From Balanoglossus misakiensis (Eukaryota; Animalia; Hemichordata), in the NCBI GenBank assembly GCA_040954595.2, contig CM082597.2:9331778-9395777 (forward strand): a DNA stretch of 64,000 bases. Direction: 5' to 3'. A program made the translations under genes and the position numbers. Each line of letters begins with the position of its first letter. The stretch's first letter is position 1. Below, piece after piece: positions 3,008 to 55,964 of this stretch. The notes under the pieces were generated by a model. That model did no database searches, had not been told where the DNA came from, and saw only the letters and a list, made by a program, of their open reading frames with translations.

Positions 3008-5990
3008 ATGGTGGGTACCAAAACGATTTTGCCAAACTGTGTTGTTTTTCTCATGGCCACAGGTAAGCACGTCTTTGATATTTTTTGTTTAGCGCAAACA
3101 TTTCCCATTTTGCTTTTTCCGATTCTACTTTTTAACACGCTTGGAACTACTTAGCGATAACAGTATCTTGCAAACAGCCTGAATATTTCACCTTCTTAGA
3201 TATCATTGTAAAAACGCGATAAAAAATAATCAATTTGCAAAAATGTCAATGTAGTTTCATAGAATTCAGATGATTTATAGTTTTAACGATCACAAAATAT
3301 TTCCATGTGTACGTGTTAGATGTGAAAAATGACCACTGTTGAACTTACATTTTTGCCTAAAATGGAAAAAGAGTCATAAACGGGAAAACAGTATACCGAC
3401 TAAGATTTCGTTTTATGATCATTTCGTGATGGTTGCAAATTTGCTAACTGAAGCGGTGAAAATTGAGATTTTAATTTGGGATCTGTGGTGATCTGTTCCG
3501 ATATGAAATGGTTAAACGTGCCTCGCGCGGATTACAAGTCTTAATGCATTAGATTATGATGGCTTGTGAGTCGACAACTCAATAATAGCCTTTATAGTTC
3601 CTGTTTATATCGACAGAAACCATTGTTGTCAATTGTTTCGATCACGCCACCTTGTTGGCTGATGCAATCACCATGTTTTGTACCTGCACGGATTTTAAGG
3701 TCAATTTATTGAGCGATGCAGACTTTGCTCTGGCCCAGGGCTCTGCCTTATATGGGACTGGCCTGGATGTATACGTCATTGCGCACGTCTCGTATGCATA
3801 CGTGGGTGAATAGGAATTGTTCAAGTATTTGTTTTACATTCAAGAAAAGAGTCTGAATACGACGACCAATCAACAAAATTTTCCATGATTAGTATAACAA
3901 AATATGAATCACGTTGTTAGTAGTGTTGACATGGCCAACTCATTTTGATGGATCAGTACAGTCAACGTCGGTGAAATTATAATCGTAAATCATGCGTTTT
4001 TGTCTTGTTTCTTTTCAGTGACATTTGCTGATGAAGCCGAGAAACTCAGTCGGACGGTGTGCGTCTGCCTCGACAGAGATGCAACCATTGCCTGTCCCGT
4101 TGAACCAGGTAATCACGACAAGTTGACCATGGGGAGATGGACGTTAGCGGAGGAACATAGTTTTATCGCACAAAAATCCTCGGATGGGTTTTCAAAATAC
4201 ATTGATCCAGACAAGTATGTCATAGAAGACATGCCTTCACTGACTGTCAGAAGAATGGCGCTTTCTGATGAGACTGACTATCGGTGTTTAGTGACAGTAG
4301 AGTCGCCTAATAGCAACCCACATGAATCGACGCAGTTGACAGGTGTCGCCCACTTGCGTGTATGTGGTAAGTTCACATCTCGTACTCGCAGCCGCAGATG
4401 TGACGACACACACCGCGTTTAGTATTGTAGTCAAGCAATGTCACGTTACGCGACTATGACATTAATGAGCGGAAAAACGCTAAGATATATGTACGTAAAA
4501 CGGTTACAAGAAGAGCTACCGTCAAGCCTATTGTATATATGTTTATTTTGGAGATACATTTTATTGTTTTTCCACTTCTTTTCCAGCCCCAGTCCGCATG
4601 CGCTTATATCATCTTGTGACATCGGACCGCAGTGATCAAATTCATGATGTGAACAACTCCACCGTCAAAGTGGTCTCCGCAGTGACGTTGACAGCGATTT
4701 GTTTTGTGAACTCAAGCAGTCCGGCCACAAATGTTTCGTGGCTTTTCAACGACCAAGTGCTTTCGGCAATTGACGTCATCTCTATCCAGACGGAGTCAGT
4801 AGAAGTGGGCCCAGACTACAACATAACCAGCAACCTAACGATAGCTAAGACTGACGAGAGGCATTCTGGGACGTATACGTGCGTAGCGAAACATGATTGC
4901 ATGGAGCAAAATGCAAAAATGTCGTTTACTGCCGATTTACGAACAGGTGCAGGTAACTCATTATACACATGATGACTGACAATGAGGGCAACAGTGTATT
5001 TAGATGACTGAGCTCGAGGGCGCTGCTAGTCACAACTAAAACAGACTGTTTTGGTGTGACTGGCAGTCCCGAGGTCATCAAAAATACACTGATGCCCGAA
5101 TGTCAGTCGTCATGTGTTTTATAACACACCAAACACGACACACACCACATCCAGGCAACAGTACCGGGCGGAAACCGATCGAAGCCCCAGGGAACAGTTC
5201 GAAATGACTAAGGTCACGTGATGGCGTATTGACGAATCACGATCGAGGGTTCGCTGCATGGTGTGTTATAATCTCCAGTTGTAGACTGTTGTAGACGTTG
5301 CAATCGCTTACACAAAAAAACAAAGTCGTTCTTGTACAAGTGCCATGTAGCCGAGATATCTCCGAGCGGAGATAACATTTACCACTATGCCCTTATTGAT
5401 TTTCAGGTGAATACACTAACAGTACGAGTGTGCAGATATGCATGTACATAATAATCGGTGCTGGGTGTATTGTGGTAACAGTAGTAGTCGTCACAGTGAC
5501 ATGTCGCATGACAGTTGTGTGGAAAACACGGAAAACAAAGAAAAATGTAAGTTCAATGTTTGTTACAGGTTTGTCAAAAAGGGCCCGTGGCCGTGAACTT
5601 CATCATTTCCTCCTCCTCCTACCCTCCCACCGTCACCATTTATATATATGTCTTTGTTTTTTATCTTTTCTCAAGGACAATGCCGAGGGAAGAATGGGTG
5701 TCGCCGGAAAGGGACTGAAGCATGATGAGAGTCAACGTACAGAGAATGGTTACAGTATGTTCGATGCCTTACACTGTTGATGGTTTTGTAAATTTGTGGC
5801 TATTAAAAAAAATATACCTGTCTATCTATCTGTCTGTCTGCCTTATCTGCCTATATTGATCATTAAACATTTCCTTCCTCCACAGCACCTCTACCTGCCA
5901 GTCCGTGAGCTGTCTAGCATTGGACATAATGGTGAACCAGAGACAGCAAAAGAGACTCACTCAATTTATACAGGAAATGCAAGTGACTGA
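3008..5990 (+). CDS. Type-I transmembrane immunoglobulin-superfamily protein (signal peptide, V-like Ig, C2/I-like Ig, TM helix, short cytoplasmic tail)
   Basis: Exons 3008-3062 (MVGTKTILPNCVVFLMAT, phase 1), 4019-4366 (IACP...GRW...DETDYRC), 4587-4952 (AICF...VSWLFN...HSGTYTC), 5407-5546 (TM helix then KTRKTKK), 5676-~5754 and ~5886-5990. Phase-1 Ig exons are typical of the family. The frame of the last exon is uncertain. Confidence 0.85.
4961..5271. mobile_element. Non-autonomous palindromic (double-hairpin) repeat in an Ig-gene intron
   Basis: ACACATGATGACTGACA (~4965) is inverted against TGTCAGTCGTCATGTGT (~5101), with further inner complementarity. TTATAACACACC (5119-5130) is the exact reverse complement of GGTGTGTTATAA (5260-5271). 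Confidence 0.6.
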
Positions 5991-7077
5991 GCATTATGAT
6001 GCTTATTCCACCGGCCGCATATTATTTATATCGCGTCAAGTTCGTCCGTTCTCCGCAAGCGGATAGTGCAAACCAAACTTTCCGGGCTAGAAACTGTTAG
6101 CTACTGAAATTAGATCGCAGCCGCAGAACACCACACATTGATTCGAGGAAAGCTGCCATGAACATGATGAATGGCGTATCATTTGTGGAATCTTAATTTT
6201 ACATTTAGCAATGTATGCACTTTTTACAAAGAAATATGTTGGTACCTAATATTTGAATCAAGTGCTGTCGCACTGTATTGATAGACAACGACGCTTTATT
6301 TCACCGTAAAACAAATAAACTTTAAACCCTTGCGTGACCTCCAATGACCTTAGAGATGATTAATATAATTTTTGCACGTAGCTTTGAAATTTTCAAGACG
6401 AAGAAATCAGTAAAAGGTCGATATTTTCCCTCTGAGAGCTATACTTAGTTGTGTGCTTTTTACCCCGCCCCTCCCTCTTCCACCAGAGGGATGTCTATTT
6501 ACTTACCTCAACTATGGAACACCACCAACCGGGATAGTGAGATCCTCCCACCGGGCTTCTGTGCAACCAGGTACATTAAACTCTTGGCGTGTCCCAATAA
6601 TACATTATGATTCCAAGTTCAAAGTATAGTGTTCCTGGACAGCAGATATGTGAAACTGCGCGTTTGTACTTGACCATGATGTCAGCGAAAAGCAAATTAG
6701 GCATATTCAGTGAAAATTCCCACTGCGTCAGGCTCTCGTACACTTTTCAGACTGTAGAAATTATACGCTTATTGATTAAACGACACTACGTCATGGGTAC
6801 GCCTCCTATCCGACAAAGGCATTGTTTTTGTTGGGTCACTGGGTCCATGTTTCGATACGCGGCTACGCTAGGAGATAAAGCTATGCTAGGTGGATATATC
6901 AACAACACAGTGCAATAATGACTCCTGTAACACTAGCATAAGGTCAGAGTTCATGTAAACGCTCGTTTGAATGGGCCAGTACAGTCCACACTGGTGTTTT
7001 TGTGTACTCGTGTAGCTTCTGTAGTTTACATTAAAATATTTAGTCTAGCGATTGAGACGGTGAAATGGTCGGATATT

Positions 7078-8102
7078 AGCCGACCGGTGCTGGAGGAACA
7101 TCAAAACCCAGCTGCAGTGAGCATCTGATAATGGTGATGAATACGATGCTGACCGTACTCTCTGCAGTCCAAAATGGGAAAGCCGATAATGGTGTCGATG
7201 AAACAAAGAGAAAAATCGACGAACAGGACAAGAAGATCGACAGACTGACCAGCGAGTCGAAGAACATGGAGACAGAAATGCAGGCACTCAAAGAAAATCT
7301 GAAGAAAACAGCGATTGTTGAGAACAACCTTACTCTAAACGGTTTCAAGACATCCCTAGAAAAAAAACCCGGTCGGATTTTGAGACTCTCGGTAACAAAC
7401 AGACGGTTTTACAGACCAAAGTGTCGACTTACGAGGGAATCGTAGCTGTCTTAAATAATCAGATTGAGGAGCTAGGATCGCATGAGGTGGAAAAGAGCAA
7501 ACGGAAGGAAAGTGAGAAGATTGTAGAATTGGAACGCAAAGTCCAAGCACAGGACAGAATTATAGGAGCGTTGAAGGATGTGGCTTTGGCTGAGAAGGAC
7601 CTGAGAATACAATCTTTAGAGACGGCTTCATATGATGGTGTTTTACTTTGGAAAATTTCGGATATAACAAAAAAGCGCCGAGATGCAGTCTCGGGTAAAA
7701 CCGTCTCCATTTATTCCCCGTGTTTCTACACAAGTCGCCATGGCTACAAGATGTGCGCCCGCATCTACCTGAATGGCGACGGTATGGGCAAAGGTTATCC
7801 AGTGTCTGTCTTTTTCGTCGTCATGAAGGGCCAGTATGACGCCCTCTTGAGATGGCCCTTCCGCCAGAAGGTAACCATGTGCAGTGGATCTATCAGAATA
7901 ACAGGGAACATGTGATCGATGCTTTCAGACCGGATCCGTCATCGTCTTCTTTCAGATGACCGACACAAGATATGAACATCGTTAGTGGGTGTCCTCAGAT
8001 CTGTTAATGCCACTGTCGCAACTGGACAGTCCCAGACACGCCTACGTGAAAGATGATGAAGCATTTCTGAAAGCAATTATGGATACGAGTGATTTCATTT
8101 AA
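7078..8102 (+). pseudogene. TRAF1/2-like pseudogene, terminal exon (coiled coil and MATH), copy 1
   Basis: Motifs STYEGIVAVLN, LETASYDGVLLWKI, HGYKMCARIYLNGDGMG, DAFRPDPSSSSF and HAYVKDD are split by frameshifts (~7100, ~7370, ~7880, ~8000) and an in-frame TGA (~7957). No RING or zinc-finger exons were found upstream. Confidence 0.92.
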
Positions 8103-8754
8103 CAAGGTGATTAAAAAGAAAGCTAGCATTTTATTGTGCTTCAGTCTGTAAGGCTGTGAGCTGGAAATAATTTTCTTCGAAACGAAAACACTGTGTAATC
8201 CTCTAAGGATAAATACACTTACTTTGGAAGATAAAGGTATTTTTTAAGTTATTGCCAATACCTGAGATATGTTACAGTATTTGCAATGCAAACTTGTGTA
8301 TACATGTACATGTATTCTATGTTCTATTCAGTGCGGAGACGAGGGGATTTAATAATTTAAGATGAGAGCGGTTGTGCTGTGACAATGAAGTGAGTGACAG
8401 ATTCTTTAATTTTAACAGCCATTTTTTTTTTTTGCATGATACCATGCACAATAGTTATCATAATCAAGCCGAAATTATCGTTTTGTAAGAGTTTATTTAT
8501 ATGAAGGTGTATTTCTTTCAATATATAAAATAAGCACGTACAATACAAATTACTATATATCGTGTTATTGTCATGTACGTGATGTATTCAAATATGAGAA
8601 ATAAATCTGGAGAGTGACAACGCATTCGATCTCTACGAAAAGCTTACAATGCACCGTGATCAAAGTCTACAGGGAATTTGGTCTGCAAAAGCATTAGTGC
8701 GCGTATCCCCCGTGGCCTATTTAAATAATTGTGAGCATGCGCAGTGCTCAGATT

Positions 8755-8764
8755 GGAAATCCCC
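8755..8764. promoter_or_regulatory. Candidate NF-kB site GGAAATCCCC (duplicated at 12577-12586)
   Basis: Reverse complement GGGGATTTCC fits GGGRNWYYCC. A TATTTAAAT box and a CATGCGCA motif lie nearby, about 1 kb upstream of the death-fold exon. Function is inferred. Confidence 0.45.
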
Positions 8765-9776
8765 TATTTGATCAGTGTCTATATTTATCTAGAGGAATGT
8801 GTTGACCTTTTGTGCGGTTTTACGCTCTTTGCTAGAGGGTTGTCCGACACAGTCATCAGTGTAAGTACTCTTTTTCTCTCTCATCGTGGTAGATGACCTA
8901 TCTATAACCGGATTTACTGCTTTCGATGTACATGTACTGTCCCCGTAGCAGATTACAAAGCGTTTACAAAGTGTAATGGTGTAATTCGCCTCGTAAAATA
9001 CAAGTAGGCCTAACTTGGCATTGGCATTTTCACCGTGACTACACAGCGACCATATCTGAGTCATTTGAAAGGTACCAAAGAGTGATACACTCAGCGGACG
9101 GTGAGACTCAGACTACGTTGACTTCTCCCTTATTGTTCACCTTGAAGCAGGTGTCGGCAAGACAGTCTGGTTCACCGCCGGGCCTACACAGCACAGCTCA
9201 GCCCACGTCTAATACTTTTCTTTGTCTGGCTCTGCCCAAGATGGCGTGGGTCATTGTCCGAAAGTGTAAAGGAATTAGCTAATGGTACATATGCGGCTTA
9301 ATTGAGGGTTGAGCGAAAAATCAACCCATAACTTTTCAGTTCCTTGTGACTCATGCAGTCCCTGAACGTTTTGCCGTCAAAATGAGGACTGAAAATCGAA
9401 TGTCGTAAGAACCGTGACATCATTTTATAGTGGGCTTCAGAAGTTGAACTACAGTAAGGAGGCTTTAAATTTACATAGGTGGGGTGGTTACCTGTACCTC
9501 TGATGTGTCAATCATTTGGAGTGGGTGTATTTAAAATATTAGAGCTAGCATTTGTGAAACTGTGCTTCCCGACGATGTAATACTGTTTGTTTTGTTCACA
9601 CCAGGTAAACATAACAAGCTTACACGATGACCACAACATATCTAGATATTTTGTAATTGTTATGGAAATCCTCGTCGATGATGAGAGGCAACTTCGAGGT
9701 TACACACTGTCTCCTTTACCATTACATTCGTAATTTTCCATACAGAAAAAACGCTTCAGGAACGCAAGCTTGCGGC

Positions 9777-9934
9777 ATGGAGAATGCCACAGAAGTCTGC
9801 CGTCAGCGACTGTCTAGCATATTCGACGAGCTCACAGCGGACGACCTTGAGAAGGTGAAGGTGTATCTGCGCGGCCAAGGAATACCCTGGGGACCCGTGA
9901 ACTCACTAAACTTATCGAGCGAGTTTGCCAACAT
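9777..9934 (+). pseudogene. Truncated copy of the PYD-like exon, cut by the duplication breakpoint
   Basis: MENATEVCRQRLSSIFDELT...SSEFANI is identical to the exon at 15250, then runs into the start of duplication copy 2. Confidence 0.9.
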
Positions 9935-10901
9935 TAGATCGCAGCCGCAGAACACCACACATTGATTCGAGGAAAGCTGCCATGAACATGATGAATGGCG
10001 TATCATTTGTGGAATCTTAATTTTACATTTAGCAATGTATGCACTTTTTACAAAGAAATATGTTGGTACCTAATATTTGAATCAAGTGCTGTCGCACTGT
10101 ATTGATAGACAACGACGCTTTATTTCACCGTAAAACAAATAAACTTTAAACCCTTGCGTGACCTCCAATGACCTTAGAGATGATTAATATAATTTTTGCA
10201 CGTAGCTTTGAAATTTTCAAGACGAAGAAATCAGTAAAAGGTCGATATTTTCCCTCTGAGAGCTATACTTAGTTGTGTGCTTTTTACCCCGCCCCTCCCT
10301 CTTCCACCAGAGGGATGTCTATTTACTTACCTCAACTATGGAACACCACCAACCGGGATAGTGAGATCCTCCCACCGGGCTTCTGTGCAACCAGGTACAT
10401 TAAACTCTTGGCGTGTCCCAATAATACATTATGATTCCAAGTTCAAAGTATAGTGTTCCTGGACAGCAGATATGTGAAACTGCGCGTTTGTACTTGACCA
10501 TGATGTCAGCGAAAAGCAAATTAGGCATATTCAGTGAAAATTCCCACTGCGTCAGGCTCTCGTACACTTTTCAGACTGTAGAAATTATACGCTTATTGAT
10601 TAAACGACACTACGTCATGGGTACGCCTCCTATCCGACAAAGGCATTGTTTTTGTTGGGTCACTGGGTCCATGTTTCGATACGCGGCTACGCTAGGAGAT
10701 AAAGCTATGCTAGGTGGATATATCAACAACACAGTGCAATAATGACTCCTGTAACACTAGCATAAGGTCAGAGTTCATGTAAACGCTCGTTTGAATGGGC
10801 CAGTACAGTCCACACTGGTGTTTTTGTGTACTCGTGTAGCTTCTGTAGTTTACATTAAAATATTTAGTCTAGCGATTGAGACGGTGAAATGGTCGGATAT
10901 T

Positions 10902-11926
10902 AGCCGACCGGTGCTGGAGGAACATCAAAACCCAGCTGCAGTGAGCATCTGATAATGGTGATGAATACGATGCTGACCGTACTCTCTGCAGTCCAAAATG
11001 GGAAAGCCGATAATGGTGTCGATGAAACAAAGAGAAAAATCGACGAACAGGACAAGAAGATCGACAGACTGACCAGCGAGTCGAAGAACATGGAGACAGA
11101 AATGCAGGCACTCAAAGAAAATCTGAAGAAAACAGCGATTGTTGAGAACAACCTTACTCTAAACGGTTTCAAGACATCCCTAGAAAAAAAACCCGGTCGG
11201 ATTTTGAGACTCTCGGTAACAAACAGACGGTTTTACAGACCAAAGTGTCGACTTACGAGGGAATCGTAGCTGTCTTAAATAAACAGATTGAGGAGCTAGG
11301 ATCGCATGAGGTGGAAAAGAGCAAACGGAAGGAAAGTGAGAAGATTGTAGAATTGGAACGCAAAGTCCAAGCACAGGACAGAATTATAGGAGCGTTGAAG
11401 GATGTGGCTTTGGCTGAGAAGGACCTGAGAATACAATCTTTAGAGACGGCTTCATATGATGGTGTTTTACTTTGGAAAATTTCGGATATAACAAAAAAGC
11501 GCCGAGATGCAGTCTCGGGTAAAACCGTCTCCATTTATTCCCCGTGTTTCTACACAAGTCGCCATGGCTACAAGATGTGCGCCCGCATCTACCTGAATGG
11601 CGACGGTATGGGCAAAGGTTATCCAGTGTCTGTCTTTTTCGTCGTCATGAAGGGCCAGTATGACGCCCTCTTGAGATGGCCCTTCCGCCAGAAGGTAACC
11701 ATGTGCAGTGGATCTATCAGAATAACAGGGAACATGTGATCGATGCTTTCAGACCGGATCCGTCATCGTCTTCTTTCAGATGACCGACACAAGATATGAA
11801 CATCGTTAGTGGGTGTCCTCAGATCTGTTAATGCCACTGTCGCAACTGGACAGTCCCAGACACGCCTACGTGAAAGATGATGAAGCATTTCTGAAAGCAA
11901 TTATGGATACGAGTGATTTCATTTAA
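10902..11926 (+). pseudogene. TRAF1/2-like pseudogene, copy 2
   Basis: Carries the same lesions as 7078-8102 at offset 3824, so the gene was already disrupted before the duplication. Confidence 0.92.
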
Positions 11927-12576
11927 CAAGGTGATTAAAAAGAAAGCTAGCATTTTATTGTGCTTCAGTCTGTAAGGCTGTGAGCTGGAAATAATTTTCT
12001 TCGAAACGAAAACACTGTGTAATCCTCTAAGGATAAATACACTTACTTTGGAAGATAAAGGTATTTTTTAAGTTATTGCCAATACCTGAGATATGTTACA
12101 GTATTTGCAATGCAAACTTGTGTATACATGTACATGTATTCTATGTTCTATTCAGTGCGGAGACGAGGGGATTTAATAATTTAAGATGAGAGCGGTTGTG
12201 CTGTGACAATGAAGTGAGTGACAAATTCTTTAATTTTAACAGCCATTTTTTTTTTGCATGATACCATGCACAATAGTTATCATAATCAAGCCGAAATTAT
12301 CGTTTTGTAAGAGTTTATTTATATGAAGGTGTATTTCTTTCAATATATAAAATAAGCACGTACAATACAAATTACTATATATCGTGTTATTGTCATGTAC
12401 GTGATGTATTCAAATATGAGAAATAAATCTGGAGAGTGACAACGCATTCGATCTCTACGAAAAGCTTACAATGCACCGTGATCAAAGTCTACAGGGAATT
12501 TGGTCTGCAAAAGCATTAGTGCGCGTATCCCCCGTGGCCTATTTAAATAATTGTGAGCATGCGCAGTGCTCAGATT

Positions 12577-12586
12577 GGAAATCCCC
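12577..12586. promoter_or_regulatory. Candidate NF-kB site upstream of the PYD-like/TRAF gene
   Basis: GGAAATCCCC in duplication copy 2. Confidence 0.45.
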
Positions 12587-13463
12587 TATTTGATCAGTGT
12601 CTATATTTATCTAGAGGAATGTGTGACCTTTTGTGCGGTTTTACGCTCTTTGCTAGAGGGTTGTCCGACACAGTCATCAGTGTAAGTACTCTTTTTCTCT
12701 CTCATCGTGGTAGATGACCTATCTATAACCGGATTTACTGCTTTCGATGTACATGTACTGTCCCCGTAGCAGATTACAAAGCGTTTACAAAGTGTAATGG
12801 TGTAATTCGCCTCGTAAAATACAAGTAGGCCTAACTTGGCATTGGCATTTTCACCGTGACTACACAGCGACCATATCTGAGTCATTTGAAAGGTACCAAA
12901 GAGTGATACACTCAGCGGACGGTGAGACTCAGACTACGTTGACTTCTCCCTTATTGTTCACCTTGAAGCAGGTGTCGGCAAGACAGTCTGGTTCACCGCC
13001 GGGCCTACACAGCACAGCTCAGCCCACGTCTAATACTTTTCTTTGTCTGGCTCTGCCCAAGATGGCGTGGGTCATTGTCCGAAAGTGTAAAGGAATTAGC
13101 TAATGGTACATATGCGGCTTAATTGAGGGTTGAGCGAAAAATCAACCCATAACTTTTCAGTTCCTTGTGACTCATGCAGTCCCTGAACGTTTTGCCGTCA
13201 AAATGAGGACTGAAAATCGAATGTCGTAAGAACCGTGACATCATTTTATAGTGGGCTTCAGAAGATGAACTACAGTAAGGAGGCTTTAAATTTACATAGG
13301 TGGGGTGGTACCCGTACCTCTGGTGTGTCAATCATTTGGAGTGGGTGTATTTAAAATATTAGAGCTAGCATTTGTGAAACTGTGCTTCCCGACGATGTAA
13401 TACTGTTTGTTTTGTTCACACCAGGTAAACATAACAAGCTTACACGATGACCACAACATATCT

Positions 13464-14645
13464 AGGGCTTTCTCACGTGAAATGATTAGGGCGCCCTTTT
13501 CGGGATTATAAAAGTTGGCAAACATTTCTTATCAGCGACTCAAATAGTTTTGCATTCACATGTGTATAAAAGGGACGGGATCACCGCACTCAGTGCGTCC
13601 ACAGCAGAGTGGCTAAAGGTCACAATGGCGGATTCAGTGATGTGTTTACTGTATATGTAGCTCTGGACTTATACCCAAACAGCGTATACCGTAATCTATC
13701 CTTCGGGTTCGACCAGGAAAAAATAATTATTCTTTACAAAAAGATGAAACAATGGGGGTAAAAATGAGTCAAAGTGCCAGAAGGACCCCCTCGGACATTT
13801 ATGCAAATTAGGTTCAAATAGGCTTCATGGTGCGATTGAAAATCAAGGACACATTTCGCCACTTGTCCCATTTGTTGTTCCACATCAAATAAATGGAAGA
13901 TCCGAGAAAATCCACACTTTTCCAGTTTTTGTACAGTCATCCTATAAGTATAAGCGCTTCTACGGTACCGCCTGTGAGTCTTACAGCTTTGAAACCAGTG
14001 CGTAATATACTAGTAGCATGACTCCATGCTAGTAGTAAAAGCATACAGGGATGTGGGAACGCTTTGAGTTGGTCCCTTGGGACAAAGACGTTTTTAATTT
14101 ATTCACGCACAGGGATGTATTTTTAGCCAGACAATGGCAAGACCTAGTTGCCTAGCAATTATCACCATGAACTTTGCTACAAGTTTCACTACCACTTCCA
14201 CTGGGCGTCTCAATTTTTTCAGCAGAGCCCCAGCTGCAGTAAGTTCCGACTACCTCAAGGCTTTGCCTGTAGGTTTTGGGGCTCCTCATTTTACTGATGA
14301 CCATCAGCAACAAGGCAAATTGACCGTTGACTAAGCAAGGTGCTAAACATCGCTCTTTTCAGAGGGGTAATTTTACATGCAAGCTCATTAGAAACTGCCA
14401 CTTGTATCCCCTCAAACCGCGTTGGCAGAGTGCGTTTAGATCGGCGTTTAGTGCGGTGTTTCTGTTCACACGTGATTTGAATCGCTGTTTAGTGCGGCGC
14501 CCCGACCCAGGTCCCACCCCTCAACACCGTCACAAAAAAAGAGCGGCGCAGGGCCGCTCTCACCTTTTCACACGTGGCACTTACAAATTAACGCCGCCCT
14601 AGCACCGCCGCTGGGGCGGCGTTGACGGCACGTGAGAAAGGGGTA
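13464..14645 (+). mobile_element. Composite non-autonomous TIR element (~1.18 kb) carrying a captured Tc1/pogo-MITE fragment
   Basis: Absent at the homologous empty sites (~9641 and ~15113). Ends are AGGGCTTTCTCACGTG and CACGTGAGAAAGGGGTA, flanked by ATCT. Further copies at 57704-58890 and 58903-59879. Internal 13687-14415 is the reverse complement of ~43592-44291. Confidence 0.9.
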
Positions 14646-14782
14646 ATCTAGATATTTTGTAATTGTTATGGAAATCCTCGTCGATGATGAGAGGCAACTT
14701 CGAGGTTACACACTGTCTCCTTTACCATTACATTCGTAATTTTCCATACAGAAAAAACGCTTCAGGAACGCAAGCTTGCGGC

Positions 14783-15010
14783 ATGGAGAATGCCACAGAA
14801 GTCTGCCGTCAGCGACTGTCTAGCATATGCGGACGACCTTGAGAAGGTGAAGGTGTATCTGCGCGGCCAAGGAATACCCTGGGGACCCGTGAACTCACTA
14901 AACTTATCGAGCGAGTTTGCCAACATCCTGCTGAGTCACACCGGTTCAGTCGATGAATGCAAGGAAAGGGTTCTCGCCATCCTCAAAGCAATTCCAAGAT
15001 ACGACGTCAT
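14783..15010 (+). pseudogene. Second defective copy of the PYD-like exon
   Basis: 14-bp deletion (TCGACGAGCTCACA) after AGCATAT; truncated at RYDVI by a ~480-bp local tandem duplication whose second unit starts near 15011. Confidence 0.88.
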
Positions 15011-15249
15011 ATTAGAGCTAGCATTTGTGAAACTGTGCTTCCCGACGATGTAATACTGTTTGTTTTGTTCACACCAGGTAAACATAACAAGCTTACACGA
15101 TGACCACAACATATCTAGATATTTTGTAATTGTTATGGAAATCCTCGTCGATGATGAGAGGCAACTTCGAGGTTACACACTGTCTCCTTTACCATTACAT
15201 TCGTAATTTTCCATACAGAAAAAACGCTTCAGGAACGCAAGCTTGCGGC

Positions 15250-16718
15250 ATGGAGAATGCCACAGAAGTCTGCCGTCAGCGACTGTCTAGCATATTCGAC
15301 GAGCTCACAGCGGACGACCTTGAGAAGGTGAAGGTGTATCTGCGCGGCCAAGGAATACCCTGGGGACCCGTGAACTCACTAAACTTATCGAGCGAGTTTG
15401 CCAACATCCTGCTGAGTCACACCGGTTCAGTCGATGAATGCAAGGAAAGGGTTCTCGCCATCCTCAAAGCAATTCCAAGATACGACGTCATATCCCAAAA
15501 TGACGACTTTTTCGTTTGTTTGAGAGAGGTGAGTGTGCGTCACATTTCAAAACCTTTTGTGCATGTCAAAACAGCCTCATGGGGTGTTTGGGATTTTCTA
15601 AATAAAAAAGTTAAGATAAACAAGAACAGTTGCCAATAATTGCTTTATTCTTTCAGAAAGAGGAAGTCAAGAAACAGAAATGTGGACGAGATCAGTCCGA
15701 GATTCTTGTTGCGAGCCAGAGTAAGTCCAGAGGTAGAGATTCACAACTGAAAGAAATAAACCAACAAGTGGGAGAACTGCAAAAGAAAATTGACGAGTTG
15801 ACATTAACGTGTAACTCATTGAGCAACAAAATGGCGGCGATCCAAGATGGCGACCACAAAATATCAAGTTGTCAAGGCGACACGAGTCTTGATCGACTTG
15901 ATGCAATACAGCACAAACAAATTTTACTCGAGACAATGGTATCGGCGTATAAGGAGATGGTGGACATGCTGAAGAGTCAAATATCTTTTGATTCGAAAAC
16001 TATACATCGCTTAGTGGAGGACGTGCAGAAAGCGAGAGAACGATTTGATACTTTGGAAAGCAAATTTGGAGACCAGGAGAGAAACCTCGCCCGCAATGAT
16101 CAAGTTTTGTCGGAACAGGTGTTCAGGGTAAATTGTTTGGAAACGACTTCATACAACTGTGTTTTAGTTTGGAAAATTACAGATTTTGCAAAAAAGCAAC
16201 GTGATGCTATTTCCGGCAGAATTACGTCATTGTACTCCCCTTGTTTTTATACAAGTAGTCACGGCTACAAAATGTGCGCGCGAATTTTCCTGAACGGTGA
16301 CGGAATGGGCAAAGGCACCCATGTTTCTCTCTTCTTTGTGGTGATGAGGGGTCAATATGACGAGCTCTTGAAGTGGCCGTTCGGCTACAAAGTCAGTATG
16401 ACGTGGGTAGACCAGAGTCATGACCATCAGAGAAACGTCACACATAGTTTTCGACCAAACCCGTCATCGGATTCTTTCCAGAGGCCTATAGCAGATTTGA
16501 ATACCCCTACAGGCATTCCGTTGTTCATGCCATTGTCATGTATCAGCGACCCGCGCCACAGTTATGTCAAAGATGACGTTGCCTTCGTAAAAATCACAGT
16601 AGACACAAACAAATTCAAGAATTCCTTTTTGTTCAGAGTTGTAGATTTTTCTTCGGAACACGTTTCTCCTCCCGAGGAATATATTCTCGTGACAACGAAA
16701 TCTGCTACTCATCAATAG
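15250..16718 (+). CDS. PYRIN/DED-like death fold + coiled coil + TRAF-C (MATH) fusion protein, ~446 aa
   Basis: Exon 15250-15528 (93 codons, donor GAG|GTGAGT) joins exon 15657-16718 (acceptor TTTCAG) in phase 0 with no stops. The N-terminus is a six-helix death-fold pattern. The C-terminus has VLVWKITDF, LYSPCFYTSSHGYKMCARIFLNGDGMG, FRPNPSSDSFQRP and YVKDD. No RING or zinc fingers. Confidence 0.9.
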
Positions 16719-18232: not shown

Positions 18233-20474
18233 ATGTCTGGAATTTCTGGATACTCGAAAGCAATCTTCCGCCAACAGCCTGAATTCAAGTTTCTGTGCAG
18301 TCTCTGTTCAGGCGTATTGAGAGATCCAGTACAAACCGAGTGCGGCCATCGATACTGCCGGAAATGCCTGGAAGACTGTGTAACCAGGTGTGTTGTTTGT
18401 TTGTTTTGTTTCTTCGCGCTTCTGTTTATAAAAATGAACGTGACATGACTGGCCTCACAACACCTGTTGAGGTAAACATCATACACGCTGAGCGTAATTC
18501 TTATTTACTCGTGTGTCGACATCTCTTCAAATTCTGCCAAATCCTAATACTCTCGCAACACTACTACTGCTACGCTTTATCTCCCACTCGTTTTTATCGT
18601 GGACCTAGCGAGGATTCTAAGAATATTCATATTTTAGCAGCAGCCTTTCGATCGTAGTCGTTTTGGCTGTTGCGTCAGTGTTTACCTGGGGGATACTGTT
18701 GGATTGCAAGTCCTTGAAAGATGGCTGCCTGCCAACCGTTATGTCATCATTTATGTTTATGTCAGAGAATAACACTCGAACATGTCTGACGTAATTCACT
18801 GGAACCTTGACCCAAAGACCATCCGAGTGAGGGCTGACAGCGGGTGTGCTAGGACATTATAATGTCAGGTGTTGCAACTCCCTAGCATGGCAAAGGGACT
18901 AAAATGCTGCACAAACGGGCATGCAAACTTGCGATGTGCTCCAACCATGCAGAGTAATACTTTGTCAGAAACATTTTCAGGACCGGTTTGCATGTATGCC
19001 TTGGCTGCTTTCATTCCGCCATGATTTCTCCGTGTTTTCTTGTCTGTTAATCCAGATGGGGACTAGGCCATCAACGATGACTTGGTCTCCAGGTGAAACT
19101 CAAATGCAGGCATGGCCAATTTCCATCTTTGATATGCTGGTAATCACCGGACAGATGTCTGCCACCACCATGTTATGCTGGCCATTGGCTTGAGGAAAGG
19201 TAACGTAGCTATGAATGGGTTGGTGTTTTTAAATAGGGGACTTCATTTCGCCCTAAAAATCCATGAACACATTACGAATTTCCAGGCCCAACTCGTGATT
19301 TCCAAGAACTTTACTTTACGAATCGCATTAGTTATAAAATTTATTAAAATTCTTTCCTTTAATGCACAAGATGCAGTGTTTTGTTTTTGTTTTTTTTTTC
19401 AAATCGTGAACATTTAGGTCTACTGGACATGGGTGACATGTTTATGTGGGATTGAATTATACGTTCCCTATTTACTTTGTTGTTACGTTCTTGTGTCACT
19501 GAGGAGTGTTATTTTATTGGATTAGATAAAATGGGGTCATTCACATTTGTTTATAATTTCTGACGCAATGGTATTAATGTGACGTCGGTGTCATCATTAC
19601 CACGGAGTAGTTGAGAGTTGAGGTGCAGGGCGCATATTTTGATCTTTTCAACTTGAATAACTACGTAGAATTGACGCCTTTCAAATTCCCTCCGTATAAT
19701 AAATGGAAGTGATTGGTTTAAACGAGAGTTTCTCTGTTTTGTTTTGGTGACTCAAGAATGTTAATGTGCACCAACTCACTCACTTATATAGTATGACGAC
19801 CAACCTCAAGGCAATGATATTAAAACATAGCATCGTTTTGATACCACCATTAAAATTTTACTTGCCAGTCCCAAATTTTAATTGCAGAGAAAAGAATAAA
19901 AATCTGCATCAACTGATTTCGTTCTGTGGTAGACTTTGTTATCATCACTTGATTTTGTACATCAAGACGTTTTGCATGAATTCCTTTCTGACGTAAACAC
20001 TACTTTGACCTAAGTTTATGAGGTCGTTATTACATGTATACTCACGCAAGCGTGGCTTGTTTACAAACAATTCTTGTGACGTCATCATGTCTTACCCGTA
20101 AACACAATTGTTTTCCCTTGTCATTGTTGTAAGACACATCATAAATGTCTCCACTAGCACAGTTTATTTTTTGTCCAACTTCACCGAACATTTCAAATTC
20201 TACAATTAGAATCTGTGTTAAAATGAAGCTAATCATGTAAACTCCAAATTCGTACAACATGATTGTTTATACTACGTAACTTTTTTCACACTAAATTTAT
20301 AAATGAAGGTTCATCACTTGATTAGATTTCATGAATGTTTCCGCCATTGCGACTTGATTTGATTTTTTCAGTGTTTTTTTTTCCTTGTTGTATTCATTCT
20401 CATTTCGCCTTTGAGGGCTCTGTTGTATATTACAATTCTACTTTGAAACACAGACTACCCTCTTTAAATAAAGC

Positions 20475-20506
<32 letters not shown>

Positions 20507-20692
20507 AACCTAAGTCATCAGCAGAAGTAGGGGCTTATGGGTTTTAAGAATACGGGTAATTGTCATGTTTATCTTTGTCACAGTGATAACCACGTCACTT
20601 GCGAGGCATGCCGGGACGAGGACAACCACGAGTCAATACTTAGCATTCAGGAGGTAAGCGATGATTATTTGATACTGATGATGATTGTGGTA

Positions 20693-20771
<79 letters not shown>

Positions 20772-23054
20772 CATTAATTGAATAAATGTGAAGTTATAGT
20801 CTACTTCTTTAACTTTGCATACTAACAGCAAACCGTATATTTAAAAAATCAGAGAATACCTTTTAATACGAATTATTTTCATGCATTATTTTTGCAGATT
20901 AACACTGATAGAGCTATACTGCGTGAACTGAACAAGTGTAATGTGGGGTGTCCAAATGATGGCTGTCACTGGAAAGGGTTATACAAACAATACAGCCAGG
21001 TGAGTCTCAATTTTGGACTACTTTTCATATAACTTTTGAAATAAGAAATAACAATACTGTCAAACTGGTTAAAAGCTGCGTTGTGTATCGTCATAAACAA
21101 TACAGGACAGAAGAAAACAAAAACATGTGTAGACACTACTGGTTGGATGAGATGCAAAATATAGTAAACAAATAGTCACTTATTCTATTTAAACTTGAAA
21201 GGAACACGAATCGAGCTGCCCGTTTGCTGTCATCAAATGCATCCATCCAAGATGTAGGGCTCAGATAAGAAGGGAACACTTATCCAGGCATCTGGAGAAA
21301 GAATGTTTAATGAGACCACTCAGATGCCAATATTGCAACACCGAAGTAGCATTTGACGAACTACAGGTAAGCACGGCCATTGTTTTTAGGTGAGTGTGTA
21401 GTTTGCCTGCAGAACATGACGCTAATGACAAACGTGAAAGGGAGATGACGATATACGGACATGGACGTGTTTTTCTTTTCATTGATATTATTTTACAAGT
21501 TCATTCCATTTTTTAACCTTTTATTTCTAAGGTGCTTTGCTCTCAATTTATTTTTTATCTTCTAGAGTCACGTAGAGCAATGTCGCAAGTGGCTGGTTGC
21601 CTGCCAGTATTGTGGTAAGGACATTCTACAACAACAGGTAAAGGAAAATTGAATTTTGTGTGTGACCATCGCAAAAAACGTGTTGACGTGCCATAAACAT
21701 TCGGTTCGCTTACATCGAAATGTGTGTCACGCATATCGCATCACGACTTATGTGTGAGTGTCCGTGACTTTCTAAAATCTGTGTGATTTTAACGCATGTT
21801 GACAGATAACGTATCATCAAGACCTAAGAAATGGAGACTGTGTAAAGAAACCCCGGCCTTGCAGCTTCAAAGAAGTTGGCTGTAACGAAATGGTAAGTTC
21901 AACTCCATGTGTAGTTTGAGTTCCTTGTCACTTGAGAATGTCCTCCCATACCTAGTAACGCGAGATCTCATAGAAAATGGTGAATTGTATACTTATGAAA
22001 TACTGTTCAAAAGAATTAACGTTTAGCTAGCTTTGACTTTGTTCTTTTTATCTCAAAGATTGAAGAAGACAAAATGAAGGGCCATGAGAAAGTCTTTTTG
22101 GGAGAACACATGTTGTTGCTTCTTCACACCTTGACTGGTTTCTTGGCAACAATTCAAACCACGAAAGATGAGAGCGGTGTTCAGAAACTGAAGAGTACAG
22201 TTGACAAGCAGCAGACCAGGATCGACAGCTTGACATCCGGCGTACAGAAGTTGGAGACGATTGCGAAAGACATGGCAGAAGTCGCGAGGGGAAAGTTGGA
22301 AAACGGCATGACAATGGACGGAACGAAAATGACACTTGATAGACTAGGCAAATCCTTCGAAGGCCTGAAGAAAGAGGAAACTGTTCTTCACACCAAGCTC
22401 GCCACGTACGAAGGGATTGTTGCTGTGTTGAACAACCAGGTAGAACAGGATGCGCAAATGGTGCAGGAAATGAAGCGTCAAAGAACTAGAGACAGAGAGC
22501 TTATTGATGCTTTGGAGAGAAAGCTAAAGGCCCAGGACAGAGTTATTGCACTGAAAGACATAGCACTGGCAGAACAGGATTTGCGAATACAGGCCTTAGA
22601 AATGGCTTCCTATGATGGTGTGTTAACGTGGAAAATTGGCAATTTTGGAAGAAAGCGAAATGAAGCGATTTCGGGGAAGTCTACTTCCATATACTCCCCA
22701 TGTTTCTATTCCTCTCGCCATGGTTACAAGAACGGGGATGGTATGGGCAAAGGCAACCACGTCTCTGTTTTCTTTACCATCATGAAGGGACCCTTTGACG
22801 CCCTTTTGAGATGGCCCTTCCGCCAAAAGGTCACCTTGATGTGGTTGGATCAAAACAACAGGGAGCATGTCATTGATGCTTTCCGACCTGATCCAACATC
22901 AAATTCATTTAAGAGACCAGTGCAAGACATGAACATCGCCAGTGGGTGCCCTTTGTTCATGCCATTGTCGCATCTGAACAGTCCCAGACACGCTTATGTC
23001 AAAGATGACGTTGCTTTTCTGAAGGTGATTGTGGATATAAGTGATCTCATTTAA
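18233..23054 (+). CDS. TRAF2: TNF receptor-associated factor, TRAF1/2-like (RING, TRAF zinc fingers, coiled coil, MATH), ~548 aa
   Basis: Exons 18233-18387, 20584-20653, 20898-20999, 21202-21366, 21566-21637, 21806-21892 and 22059-23054, all GT/AG and in frame. C3HC4 RING (CSLC, CGH, CRKC, CEAC) and MATH motifs DAFRPDPTSNSFKRP and MNIASGCPLF. The MATH domain lacks MCARIYL. Exact orthology to TRAF2 is not tested. Confidence 0.93.
20692..20770. repeat. (ATG)n microsatellite
   Basis: Pure ATG run in TRAF intron 2. Confidence 0.97.
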
Positions 23055-23881: not shown

Positions 23882-25201
23882 TGTTCTGGTTAGAATCGTA
23901 TCGGTAAGACAAAGACAGAAGAGTTGACAGACAACAAACGTATTCAGTTTATTAACATAAAATTCTTACTATAAAACGTTCATGAGGCTTCGTAAGGGTA
24001 AGAGAAAGGCAGACACAGAAGAAGAAAAATGGCTGACCAACAACTTCTTTCAAATCCCTGAATACATTCCTGTGGTCCCAGTAAAATCACAGCGAGTTTA
24101 TAACACGAACATTGAGTTCTAACATAATCGACCCATGCTGATGATTCAAGTGAGCGATCCCCGGCACTTCCCGATTTGTATTCCAGGGGAAAATTACGTC
24201 AGTAGATTAATTTTCTTGACTTCGTTATTTAAACTGTTTAGCAGTTTCGTTGTTTCGCAAAATATAAGTAGCCCGTTTCGGATGGTCTAATGACAGGCGC
24301 CAGTCAACAGTCAGTCCGTGTCGGATCGGCTAGTGACACGCGGGGACGCTATTCTCAAAGTATTGCTGATTTTTGACAACCAAAGCACATTTCACACAGT
24401 CCATTAAATGATTCGTCTTGTCTTGTCTTCCCCGACAATGAGATGAAACGAAGTGCAAAATTCCGAAAGTCAAAGAATTTCAAAGTTTATGTCACAGTTC
24501 TACCAGGCGAAGCAATGCGTTCTACGCGTGTACGTCTGCCGATTCTAAGCTTATCTCCTGACTACACAAGGATTTCCCTCCATTTTACTGCCGACTTTTG
24601 TAAAGCAATGCACATTTCACTTTTTTCCATCGGAGGACTTATCTTTCCGCCGAAAATGTACTAGTAGATGAAAGGAAGTGCAAATTTCTGAAATATTTCT
24701 GAGCAACCTTGCTGGCCACATACGATTGTTTTACCGTTTATGTATGATGTACTACGACCGCTGCGGACACGGACACACAGTAAAATATTTCAAGTTTGAA
24801 TTGAGAGATGTTTTCATGATGAACGAATACATTGCTTATCGTGCAATGGTACGGGGAAATGCGTTACAGCTTAAATCGTTGCGTGACAACTTAGTCTCCA
24901 AATGCATACCCCAGTGCAAGACGTGTAACGACAGCCGCGTGTCACTGGCTATTGACAGGCGCCTGTCCATATAATAGCCTCGGCCTAAATTCATGCATGG
25001 TGAACAACACCTGTTCACCACATCCAGGCAGTTTGTCGGGGTCAGTGCAATTCTCCTGACCTCACGCTATACAAGTTGTTCAAAGGTCATCAGAGTGTTG
25101 AAGCTGACCTCTGCCTCCTCGAGCTCTGCTGAGACAAGTGACGGGGAAAAGTAGGCCACCCCTTCAGGTCTGTTCGGGTCTGGGCATCACCTCGGTCAAA
25201 T

Positions 25202-28200
25202 ATGGCCGCCAGAGCAGGAGGTGGTGCGTCCTTCGATTACGTTATTATCGGTGCTGGTAGCGCGGGCTGTGTTCTCGCAAATCGTCTGTCGGAAGACCAG
25301 AGCACCAGCGTCCTGTTGTTAGAGGCTGGTCCCGATGACGACCAAGAGGCGATTCATATTCCGTCGGCGAAGGATACTGTAACGGATGTCATAGGCCGAT
25401 ACAAGGTGATATTATCAAGGGAGAACGATTTAATGGTGGAGGAGGTGGGGCGGGGTGGAATACGTAGTATGGCGGCTCAGTTTTCCCCATCATTGTCGGC
25501 TGGTTATTGGGTTATTATACCAAAGTTTGCCTTGTCATCTGCGTCAGAATGTTTTCATATTATGCCCGTAGACATCATGAATGGACGGTTCTTCTTATAT
25601 TTACAAACACATGCATTGCCATGGGTGATGCTACACTCTCAAGCAAGGAAGCAAAATTAGTTTTTTTGTATCATGATATTGTCTTGCTTTTTTCTGCAAC
25701 TTACAGAGCGTTCCTCAGGAAAATGCTTTTTTGGGCATGAATGACCATGGGTCCTTCTGGAACACGGGAAAGGTGAGATTGTCACTTAATTTCTCGACAA
25801 ATAAGTTTATTGACCTTAATGTAGTACACCAGCTTGCGAGACCAATATTATCCAGTAAGTAAATACATAACAATATGGTAAATGTGGTGGGAACCTTCCT
25901 CGTACTTCCTTATGAATAATTGCAATCACTACATGTATCACAAATATGAGAACCGCACATACAGATATAAATATTGCAATAACTAAACGAGATTGAATAA
26001 AATGGTGCACCAAGATACCAATTCCTTCCATAATTTTAAGTTGCTGTTAGGATTGATTTATTGTTATAAGCGCAATTGTATATGATAAATGGAAGCAAAC
26101 CAGAAAATATTCATTTTCTGAAAATTTTCCAACATACGGTATCTATAGCAATCATAAAGACAGTGAAAATGTATAATTCAATTGCCAATAAACAGACGAC
26201 TATGTGAACCCTTCAATCATTGTAGGTTCTCGGGGGTTCGAGCAGCATCAATGCTATGATATATGTGAGGGGTTGCAAAGAAGACTTCGATTCCTGGGCA
26301 AGACTGGGCGCTAAAGGATGGAGCTACGATGAAGTGCTTCCGTATTTCTTGAAATCTGAAAATAACACAAAGTGAGTTTTGGCGTAATCACGTTTCTGTT
26401 CCATGAAAAATGGCTGGCAGGCAGGCATGACGGACTTGAATACTGACATTGTATAAGGGCACGTGACGTTGAGTCTGGTAATTTTGCCGATGCATGCATA
26501 TAGTGTAAACACATTCGCTATCTGCAAACGTGCGTTCATAACCAACATAGGTATGTATGAACTTGTGACGTCAGAGCAGTGAATCAGATTATGTGGCATT
26601 TGTTACAGCGAAGAATGCGTGCGAAGTGGTGACCATTCGAAAGGAGGGTTACTGACGGTGTCTGACCTTTCACCTTCGTGTAAATACAGGGCAATGATCA
26701 TTGAAGGAGGTAAAGTTCTTGGCTTGCATTATCAATACTTGTGCTACTACACATATATGTCTTGGACGATGTCGATTGCCCAAAACAAAACCCGAAGTCC
26801 TTTGGAAAAATATATCTGCAAAATTTTATCCAATGCTGACCAAACAAAAAAGAAGATATCGAGCGTTATTGGTTAGCTTAGAATTAGGCATGTGCATGTT
26901 TATTGAGGATAGACTACAATGTACTTAAGATGTTTCATCCCACCCCATGCCTAGGTTGAATCTGCTCTATAGATACTGTGATATGGGGAGAGTCGGACAA
27001 GAGTCGCCCCATATTGTGTACTTGCACAAACGTACCTACTTGACAATAATATACCATTATCCGTCCGAGAAGATCAAAAACTGATTGGTTCACGGTATCT
27101 TTCACTCGTTTCCCACAGCTAAAGAACTGGGTTTCAAGATACATGACATAATCAACTATGTCGATCCGGTAAGCAATAAGTAATTAAAGGGTCCATTTGT
27201 TAATACAGCGAATTTGCAGAATGACTTCATAATTGTGGGCTCTGGTAGGAATGTTCATTGAATGAATTTGACTAGCTTACATGGTATCAAATACGAAAGA
27301 GAGCGAAGCAGTCCACTATTTGAATGCATCGATCGCAAAATTTGCAGAACATTTTGATTCGACGTAATATTTGTACACACACGAAATTACGCACATGCGC
27401 ATAAGCCGATCATGGGCCTTTAAGGTTGAAGTAACTTATTGTGAACACTTGTAGGTTGGTTTCAGTTACGCCCAAGGGACCGTAAAAGATGGTAGGCGAT
27501 GCAGCACAGCAGATGCGTTTTTGAATCCCGTCAAGGAGAGGAAGAATTTGACAATCTGGACAGAGACAACGGCCACAAAGGTAAAACCTGAATGTGTACT
27601 AGCTGGAGTAGATACACAGAACTTTAATGTAAACACTCTAGCTTCTTTATACTCCGCACTATGTTACACAAGGAACGAAGAGCTACATTGAGAAAACCTT
27701 ATAATTTCTCAAAAAAGGCATATCTGCGGAAAATTACATTGGCATGGTCGCATACTTTCATTCGATCATTGTATAAAAGAAGATGTAGTGAGAAGATTCT
27801 GCAGCGAGATAAGTATTAAACTTCTATCAACAGAAATGTAACACAATTAAAAAGTAATCTAGAAGTATGAATAATGAAAAAAAGTTGACGTTGCAACTGT
27901 ATTCAACTTCTGTCAGTGCCAGGTTGGCGAACAAATCCTGTCGGCTTAAAATGTAGACAGGTTCATGATAGTCACAAATCACTCTAATTTTAATAGCCCT
28001 GTCACAAGTTATCGGAGACCAATATACCTTAAAGGTGTGCTTATTGTGTATTACAACAACCACCCTTTGTAAAATAAACCCCTTCAGGGAAGGTATCCGA
28101 ATGTGTTGTTAGACATGCGAATTGCTGAGTGCTGTTTGAATGTTTATGTGCATATCTAATATATTTTCAGATCTTGTTCGATAACAAAACAGCAACATCG

Positions 28201-34200: not shown

Positions 34201-34306
34201 GGATGCCTCCATCATGCCACACCTCACATCTGGCAACACCAACGCACCGGTCATTATGATCGCTGAAAAGGCAGCGGATATGATCAAAGAAGATACAGCA
34301 GTGTAG
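25202..34306 (+). CDS. GMC oxidoreductase (glucose/choline/alcohol dehydrogenase-like), paralogue 1, ~550 aa
   Basis: 14 exons: 25202-25405, 25707-25772, 26226-26371, 26609-26709, 27119-27168, 27455-27580, 28171-28287, 31541-31690, 32042-32092, 32394-32488, 32743-32932, 33209-33261, 33710-33877, 34171-34306. Motifs [48 protein letters not shown] and SGNTNAP. No signal peptide. Confidence 0.95.
29652..30064. mobile_element. Kolobok-like MITE with TTAA target duplication
   Basis: TTAA|GGATGTACG ... GCGCACATCC|TTAA. Confidence 0.7.
30069..30863. mobile_element. Kolobok-like MITE with TTAA target duplication and long imperfect TIRs
   Basis: TTAA|GATGGGTC ... GACCCATC|TTAA. Inner inverted arms ACAAGGGGCTGGTAACTAGTT and AACTAGTTACAAGCCCCTTGT. 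Confidence 0.8.
31255..31484. repeat. Compound pentanucleotide microsatellite (TGTGA/TGTCA/TGTGC/TGTGT)
   Basis: Successive blocks of 5-bp variant units. Confidence 0.95.
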
Positions 34307-46570: not shown

Positions 46571-46571
46571 C

Positions 46572-46612
46572 CACAGGGGACTCTCCCTCCGCGATTTTGT
46601 TTGTTTGTTTGT

Positions 46613-46659
<47 letters not shown>

Positions 46660-47587: not shown

Positions 47588-47599
47588 GTTTTTATGGCC

Positions 47600-48746: not shown

Positions 48747-48894
48747 GGAATTATTATAGTACATCAAATCATGATCAAATTCAACTCTATACGTACCAAT
48801 TTACATAAAGCGTTATATAAGAAAGTCAGTTCGGTGATGATTGACAACCAGAGCAGTCAGTGGTTTCTCATGATTGTTCATGCATCGGGGAATC

Positions 48895-55911: not shown

Positions 55912-55943
<32 letters not shown>

Positions 55944-55964
55944 ACATCCCCATCACCATCATCG

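Follow-up and report, generated by a model that had tools for sequence, protein, structure and literature searches.

A gene predicted to join a pyrin-like death fold to a TRAF stalk and MATH domain in acorn worms

Results and Discussion

A two-exon gene couples a death fold to a TRAF module

A gene of the acorn worm Balanoglossus misakiensis is predicted to encode a pyrin domain (PYD)-like death fold joined directly to a TRAF-N coiled coil and a TRAF-C/MATH domain, and comparison with an ortholog from Ptychodera flava indicates that this architecture is real in at least two hemichordates. The gene lies within a 64,000-nucleotide stretch of genomic DNA, here called the window. An initial annotation of the window had proposed a two-exon open reading frame of ~446 residues at coordinates that prove exact:

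15250–15528, forward strand: exon 1, encoding the PYD-like death fold; 93 codons, ATG in the context GCGGCATGG, Pfam PYRIN match above cut-off
15529–15656, forward strand: predicted intron; 128 nt, GT-AG, phase 0, donor GAG|GTGAGT, acceptor after a pyrimidine tract
15657–16718, forward strand: terminal exon, encoding a short linker, TRAF-N coiled coil, TRAF-C/MATH domain and 30-residue tail, ending in a stop
15747–16142, forward strand: predicted coiled coil, approximately residues 124–255 of the model, from a heptad scan
16164–16601, forward strand: MATH/TRAF-C domain with a remodeled receptor groove (MATH_2, E 2e-32)

Joining 15250–15528 to 15657–16718 across the phase-0 intron yields 446 residues with one stop and no frameshift. 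Because 109 GT/AG pairs in this area keep the frame open, the junction is not fixed by frame alone; we infer splicing at 15528/15657 from the donor and acceptor consensus together with the P. flava ortholog. This ortholog (XP_070582233.1, hereafter P0001) is an automatic RefSeq model named "TNF receptor-associated factor 3-like" that has the same start methionine, death fold, junction, coiled coil, and MATH start. It aligns to residues 1–291 of the 446-residue model at 40% identity with a single one-residue gap near the junction, the first residue of exon 2 pairing with K95 of the P. flava protein, and identity is 52% over the death fold versus 36% over exon 2. The two differ in that the P0001 model stops at residue 309, within the MATH domain, so that this copy may be broken or mispredicted; in addition, the collection assigns it no Pfam label, and its name makes no mention of a death fold. 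The direct fusion that had been described from the letters alone is thus borne out by the PYRIN match in exon 1, the MATH and coiled-coil matches in exon 2, and the fusion in P. flava.

The host had been taken for an invertebrate, and the relatives agree. Those of exon 1 are hemichordate, and among the best 120 of 797 matches to exon 2, the best 31 are all hemichordate TRAF2-like proteins (Glandiceps, Ptychodera, and Saccoglossus) at 43 to 54% identity, on which basis a vertebrate host was rejected. A tree of MATH domains does not place the window gene, which sits on a long branch with a local support of 0.34; we assign the host from the best matches and the ortholog.

The exon-1 domain is PYD-like and borders on death effector domains

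We call the exon-1 domain PYD-like and place it at the boundary between PYDs and death effector domains (DEDs). The N terminus had been read by eye as a PYRIN domain, and its search against Pfam returned a death-fold match of that kind: exon 1 scores 25.2 bits against PYRIN (PF02758; E 1.8e-5), 2.3 bits over the cut-off of 22.9, and PYRIN is the sole family listed at E ≤ 10, with no match to DED (PF01335; cut-off 35.9 bits) at that threshold. The top PDB sequence match is the NLRP12 PYD (E 0.0017), and the motifs named in the initial annotation are present. When a profile was built from five family domains, 11 PYD chains ranked before the first DED, that of FADD.

The other four family domains score 32.8, 20.3, none, and none against PYRIN, so that two of the five aligned domains pass the PYRIN cut-off, one has a DED match only (18 bits, below the cut-off), and one has no match. 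DED matches at E ≤ 10 occur in three of the five, the relatives scoring 13.7, 18.0, and 21.6 bits, with 26.1 bits for the whole tandem protein. These matches speak for a serious though unlikely alternative, namely, that the domain is a DED that has diverged, or an intermediate predating the separation of PYDs and DEDs, and resembles pyrin through drift, and that the protein is a DED-TRAF adaptor for a FADD/caspase-8-type or DED-NLR pathway. Neither the best single domain nor the tandem protein reaches the DED cut-off of 35.9 bits, however, and exon 1 itself has no DED match.

Predicted structure also argues against the DED alternative. An alignment-based model of exon 1 (pLDDT 88) was compared with 48,161 chains, and ranks 1 to 11 were all PYDs (Z 12.6–10.0), ahead of the best DED (Z 9.9) and the best DD and best CARD (Z 8.0). 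The closest, the NLRP3 PYD (Z 12.6), superimposes with an rmsd of 2.0 over 83 residues; the PYDs at ranks 8 to 11 are within ~1 Z of the best DEDs. Foldseek likewise gave an NLRP12 PYD as the best match, with a TM score of 0.80 at an E value of only 0.007, and the Atlas model of the P. flava ortholog matched PYDs at TM 0.82 versus 0.72 to 0.73 for DEDs. The structural edge for PYD over DED is therefore 2.7 Z and ~0.1 TM. A fold predicted from the single sequence was weaker (pLDDT 69.5), with the order unchanged: PYD, then DED, then CARD. The predicted class of exon 1 is thus a six-helix death fold that lies nearest to PYDs among solved structures. Helix 3 of the model spans residues 38 to 42, five residues, a length that we compared with PYDs only; a shortened helix 3 is described as a PYD trait in part of PMC4089490.

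Other features are more favorable to a divergent DED. In Atlas language-model features, the P. flava ortholog ties between DED (0.92), mixed (0.91), and PYD (0.91) clusters, and the Saccoglossus kowalevskii relative described below (P0005) has DEDs at ranks 1 to 3. Chordate clusters with mixed DED/PYRIN labels are present in the Atlas, so that at such divergence the PYRIN and DED models of Pfam are no longer sharply distinct. An extended loop between helices 2 and 3 is a typical PYD trait, and this loop is short in the exon-1 domain, by 5 to 7 residues relative to NLRP3, NLRP4, and NLRP12; we file the domain as PYD-like, and not as a member of the PYDs, because the extended loop is lacking. 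Loop length does vary among PYDs, since that of NLRP10 (2do9) differs from that of P0005 by one residue.

The family also conserves a charge triad, with D23 in 5/5 domains, R77 in 4/5, and D79 in 5/5, the last residue being V, I, or L. An E/D-RxDL triad is presented as a DED feature in part of PMC4558505 and would support the DED alternative, but NLRP PYDs are described in PMC4089490, also seen in part, as carrying the same Glu-Arg-Asp charge relay, so the acidic residue and R-x-D motif do not separate DED from PYD. A further point for DEDs is that amphioxus is reported, in the portion of PMC3196919 consulted, to use DEDs where vertebrates use PYDs.

Taken together, the earlier PYRIN identification stands insofar as the domain is closest to PYDs by both Pfam and structure, while the language-model features tie and the family members split between the two Pfam models. 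By descent, the family is probably nearer to PYDs. With the vertebrate PYDs of NLRP3, NLRP12, NLRP6, AIM2, and POP1 (PF02758), the exon-1 domain shares the predicted fold, the short helix 3, a helix-4 alanine motif, and the charge relay, whereas it differs in its 20 to 33% identity, shorter helix 2–3 loop, and invertebrate host, and in the fusion partners of its family, which are a TRAF, a FAM111-type protease, or GT4, compared with NACHT, HIN, or CARD on vertebrate PYDs.

A small hemichordate family shares the domain

Among 1.84 billion representatives, exon 1 had eight matches, of which four are real: three from P. flava and one from S. kowalevskii. The other four (P0003, P0006, P0007, and P0008) are tandem-repeat proteins whose matches we attribute to repeats and chance; they were absent from the profile search and were dropped. 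A five-sequence profile recovered just its own 4 members among 7992 scored, and because these searches are narrow, the range of the family is a lower bound. None of 170 candidates passed in a word-indexed search of exon 1 against longer proteins, and the domain was not found on the best 120 of 797 TRAF relatives (best E 0.45). Within the 64-kb window, the family profile matched the three copies of exon 1 only. A viral scan for the domain gave 0 loci and a metagenome scan gave two (L001 and L002) in 342 stretches; L001, a low-complexity frame without a methionine, was rejected as a chance match.

Besides the TRAF fusion, the family includes three other architectures. P. flava XP_070534084.1 (P0002), named "FAM111A-like," has two family domains followed by a Trypsin_2 domain with catalytic-type His, Asp, and Ser motifs present, making it a candidate non-caspase effector for the family. 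P. flava XP_070534594.1 (P0004) has one family domain before a GT4-conflict glycosyltransferase, the model being apparently incomplete at its C terminus, as it covers 128 of 385 profile positions. S. kowalevskii XP_006821045.1 (P0005) is a 196-residue protein of two family domains alone, already labeled PYRIN and DED in the collection, and contains the strongest PYRIN match of the family (E 6e-15); we regard it as a candidate adaptor. No NLR or caspase carrying the domain was present among the four relatives found; for the inflammasome- or DISC-like assembly that the initial annotation had proposed, the candidate partners are instead a trypsin-fold protease and a glycosyltransferase. Adaptor, scaffold, and effector proteins that share one death-fold family would be the pattern expected of a homotypic signaling network.

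GT4 domains are among the immune effectors proposed for marine invertebrates, hemichordates included (PMC8195603, in part). The conflict-type architectures with GT4 and trypsin effectors in the same portion of that source (Kaur et al. 2021) likewise pair GT4 with adaptor domains, and they occur in hemichordates, cephalochordates, and cnidarians; those adaptors are TRADD-N and bacterial death-like domains, in contrast to the pyrin-like family here.

The TRAF half is TRAF2-like, RING-less, and altered in its receptor groove

Exon 2 matches MATH in Pfam at E 2e-41 along with coiled-coil families, and its best human match is TRAF2 (E 1e-57), followed by TRAF3 and TRAF1, with TRAF4 (1e-27) and TRAF6 (1e-17) more distant. 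In the heptad scan, which was run without a shuffled control, seven 28-residue windows have hydrophobic residues at 7/8 a/d positions, and the region aligns to the stalks of TRAF2/3. RING and zinc-finger families are absent from the best 25 of 47 matches listed for exon 2 and from those of exon 1, and the linker has only scattered Cys and His residues, a result that upholds the earlier designation of the protein as a non-E3 TRAF. The cIAP-binding family TRAF_BIRC3_bd (PF16673) is also absent from the Pfam list of exon 2 to E 0.25; it is matched by both neighboring TRAFs (1e-7 and 2e-10). The protein shares its coiled coil and MATH domain with TRAF1/2/3/5 (PDB 1ca9, 8zuk, 5h10), TRAF2 being closest, and differs from them in its N-terminal death fold, its altered groove, and its lack of RING, zinc fingers, and a cIAP-binding match.

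The window MATH is the most divergent of 122, with non-consensus residues in 21 of the 93 conserved columns, compared with a median of 4 and a maximum of 19 in 121 other TRAFs. The hot-spot numbers used here are those that we take to apply to the window MATH from motif spacing. Of the ten hot-spot residues for the Px(Q/E)E motif named in part of PMC6125299, six are identical, L432 is replaced by M at a variable position, and three are changed at conserved positions, one per hot spot: Y395 to F (Y in 119/121), S454 to D (S in 103/121), and C469 to I (C in 119/121). Beside a hot spot, A466 and S467 are replaced by P and T. Judged from these residues, an acid in the serine triad and the lost tyrosine hydroxyl would weaken the usual Px(Q/E)E binding. 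The statement that the TRAF trimer binds receptor tails is therefore doubtful in its canonical sense, since three of the ten hot-spot residues differ where other TRAFs are strongly conserved; this is the weakest step of the first reading, which had missed the altered groove as well as two broken exon-1 copies upstream and the surrounding TRAF cluster.

A different outcome, in which the protein is a decoy or brake that mixes into TRAF trimers or caps death-fold assemblies and so dampens signaling, seems to us improbable. It would fit the lack of a RING and of a TRAF_BIRC3_bd match among the Pfam matches listed and the changes in all three groove hot spots, and parallels exist in TRAF1, a RING-less modulator, and POP1, a PYD-only inhibitor. 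Yet a trimeric stalk would display three death folds, an arrangement favoring nucleation over capping, and the effector fusions in the family also weigh against a brake.

A possible TRAF-to-protease branch

The reading that we favor, by a little over even chances, is that of a TRAF2-type gene in which a pyrin-like exon has replaced the RING and zinc-finger exons, yielding a non-E3 trimeric adaptor that clusters three death folds, recruits proteins of the same family, and activates the tandem-domain protease. Sequence and orthology support the architecture, trimerization follows from the known structure of the TRAF domain, which forms a trimer (PMC6125299, in part), and the partners and outcome are our inference. 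Shuffling of an exon at the phase-0 intron in front of the terminal exon of cluster TRAFs may have given rise to the gene. Its product would trimerize either with itself or together with canonical TRAFs of the cluster that retain receptor binding, and the altered groove might bind a non-canonical motif or join receptor complexes through such partner TRAFs. The clustered death folds could then seed homotypic assembly with the tandem-domain adaptor and with the tandem-domain FAM111-type protease, whose activation by proximity would constitute a TRAF-to-protease branch without a ubiquitin ligase. Several points stand against this favored reading: the narrow PYRIN margin, the split of the family domains between Pfam models, the DED-leaning features, the short loop, the P. 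flava model ending in MATH, the divergent MATH domain, the absence of an NLR or caspase among the four relatives found, and the short native upstream DNA and lesioned neighbors described below. The most divergent MATH of the set also fits relaxed selection.

More tentatively, and with a chance that we put well below even, acorn worms may have true PYDs, which would make the PYD as old as the deuterostome ancestor and no vertebrate invention. In the separate signaling network thus envisaged, a TRAF trimer would seed a PYD filament, and this filament would switch on a serine protease of FAM111 type, an inflammasome-like platform without an NLR or caspase. This would bear on the published distribution of the domain. 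Two surveys, both consulted in part, state that PYDs are restricted to bony vertebrates or craniates and are lacking in invertebrates: PMC8662601, which names hemichordate species in its data set, and PMC11508797, which places no ASC or PYD outside Craniata. PYRIN is called vertebrate-specific in the portion of PMC2575513 consulted. By contrast, the part of PMC8998645 consulted reports, citing another paper, multiple origins of PYRIN-NACHT-LRR in separate lineages. The restriction of PYDs to vertebrates is challenged by a hemichordate family whose predicted fold is nearer to PYD than to DED, if the PYD assignment holds; pyrin-type immune signaling may then not be confined to vertebrates.

The nearest parallel is amphioxus, for which DED substitutes are described in parts of PMC3196919 and PMC10155998. 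Its DED-type ASC, DED-NLRs, and DED-caspases (PMC3196919 and PMC2575513, in part) likewise represent death-fold shuffling in an invertebrate deuterostome with inflammasome-like wiring, but the domains there are reported as DEDs, and those portions mention no TRAF fusion, compared with a PYD-like domain and a TRAF here. In the main text of an acorn-worm immune study (PMC10210618), a term search for TRAF, pyrin, and PYD found none of them, and the portions of PMC3879445, PMC9334734, and PMC12909245 consulted contain nothing relevant. Our literature search turned up neither a described PYD-TRAF fusion nor any account of PYDs in hemichordates, in keeping with the earlier remark that the architecture was not recognizable from described proteins, although such architectures may appear in the supplements of PMC8195603 and PMC8662601. 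We therefore describe the death fold-TRAF combination as apparently undescribed. The two main surveys of amphioxus TRAF and immune genes, Huang 2008 and Yuan 2009, may include death fold-TRAF fusions.

Through the fusion, TRAF signaling would feed straight into death-fold assembly with no ubiquitin ligase involved, a trypsin-fold protease becomes a candidate effector other than a caspase, and the family provides concrete proteins with which to ask about the origin of the PYD and the PYD/DED split. Should the domain be a divergent DED, the family would still mark the border between PYDs and DEDs, and its fusion to a TRAF would still be one that we have not found described.

The gene lies in a duplicated TRAF cluster

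The surrounding DNA contains further TRAF genes, duplicates of exon 1, and a repeat element:

7080–8099, forward strand: frameshifted TRAF2-like terminal exon, copy 1; four frames in tblastn
9536–9934, forward strand: shortened duplicate of the upstream region and the first 53 codons of exon 1; 100% identical to 15009–15407 (tblastn)
10904–11923, forward strand: frameshifted TRAF2-like terminal exon, copy 2 (tblastn)
13465–14645, no strand assigned: 1.18-kb repeat element inside the broken duplicate of the next line; imperfect inverted ends, ~6-bp target duplication
14646–15012, forward strand: broken duplicate of the upstream region and exon 1; matches at 367/367 aligned bases, with a single 14-nt deletion that shifts the frame, and stops short of the donor
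15009–15249, forward strand: native upstream DNA before the intact copy, only 241 bp; identical to 9536–9776
15078–15218, forward strand: candidate 5'-UTR intron, by GT/AG consensus only
18242–23054, forward strand: canonical RING-zinc finger-TRAF neighbor with an in-frame 7-codon deletion in MATH

In the neighbor at 18242–23054, RING and zinc-finger exons are separated by a phase-0 intron from a single large terminal exon, which is 42% identical to exon 2 over 298 columns. The matching intron phase suggests that the death-fold exon replaced RING and zinc-finger exons by shuffling. The 7-codon deletion in this neighbor removes the strand that bears the equivalents of R393 and Y395, breaking its groove. 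Upstream, a 3.5-kb tandem duplication (6109–9645 versus 9933–13465, 99.7% identical) contains the same frameshifted TRAF exon in both copies, neither of which is preceded by RING or zinc-finger exons in tblastn. The locus is unstable; its duplications and insertion could reflect genuine recent rearrangement or, in part, errors of assembly.

This setting raises the prospect, which we judge very unlikely, that the gene, in a TRAF cluster with birth-and-death turnover, is a recently silenced or decaying copy or stems from a misassembled patch of haplotype, and has no present function. Consistent with decay are the 99.7 to 100% identical duplications, the insertion and the shortened exon copies that lie directly upstream, the damage to each of the three other TRAF copies in the window, the early end of the P. 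flava model, and the fastest-diverging MATH domain. Against it, 446 codons persist without a stop or frameshift despite ~40% identity to the ortholog, the splice sites and start context are intact, and the death fold is conserved at 52%; moreover, the architecture is present in a second species, so silencing here would not undo it.

The remainder of the window contains a variety of genes and repeats. Just upstream of the TRAF cluster, exons for a protein with V-set and C2/I-set immunoglobulin domains and a likely transmembrane segment lie at 3949–5780. GMC oxidoreductase-like exons of at least one gene occupy 25142–41071, where weakly repeated pieces suggest tandem paralogs. A fragmented BEL/Pao-type retrotransposon (DUF1759, weak aspartyl protease match) is found at 44705–50450, long arrays of a 74-bp tandem repeat (~95–97% identity) at 48971–53935, and a (CAT)n-rich tract at 55815–56799. 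Further copies of the 1.18-kb element occur at 43592–44293, 57704–58879, and 59029–59880. Pieces of a non-LTR retrotransposon extend over 53928–64000, with endonuclease and reverse transcriptase frames at 60737–63972 and a partial second copy at 53928–55321, and are interrupted by the same 1.18-kb element that lies upstream of the gene.
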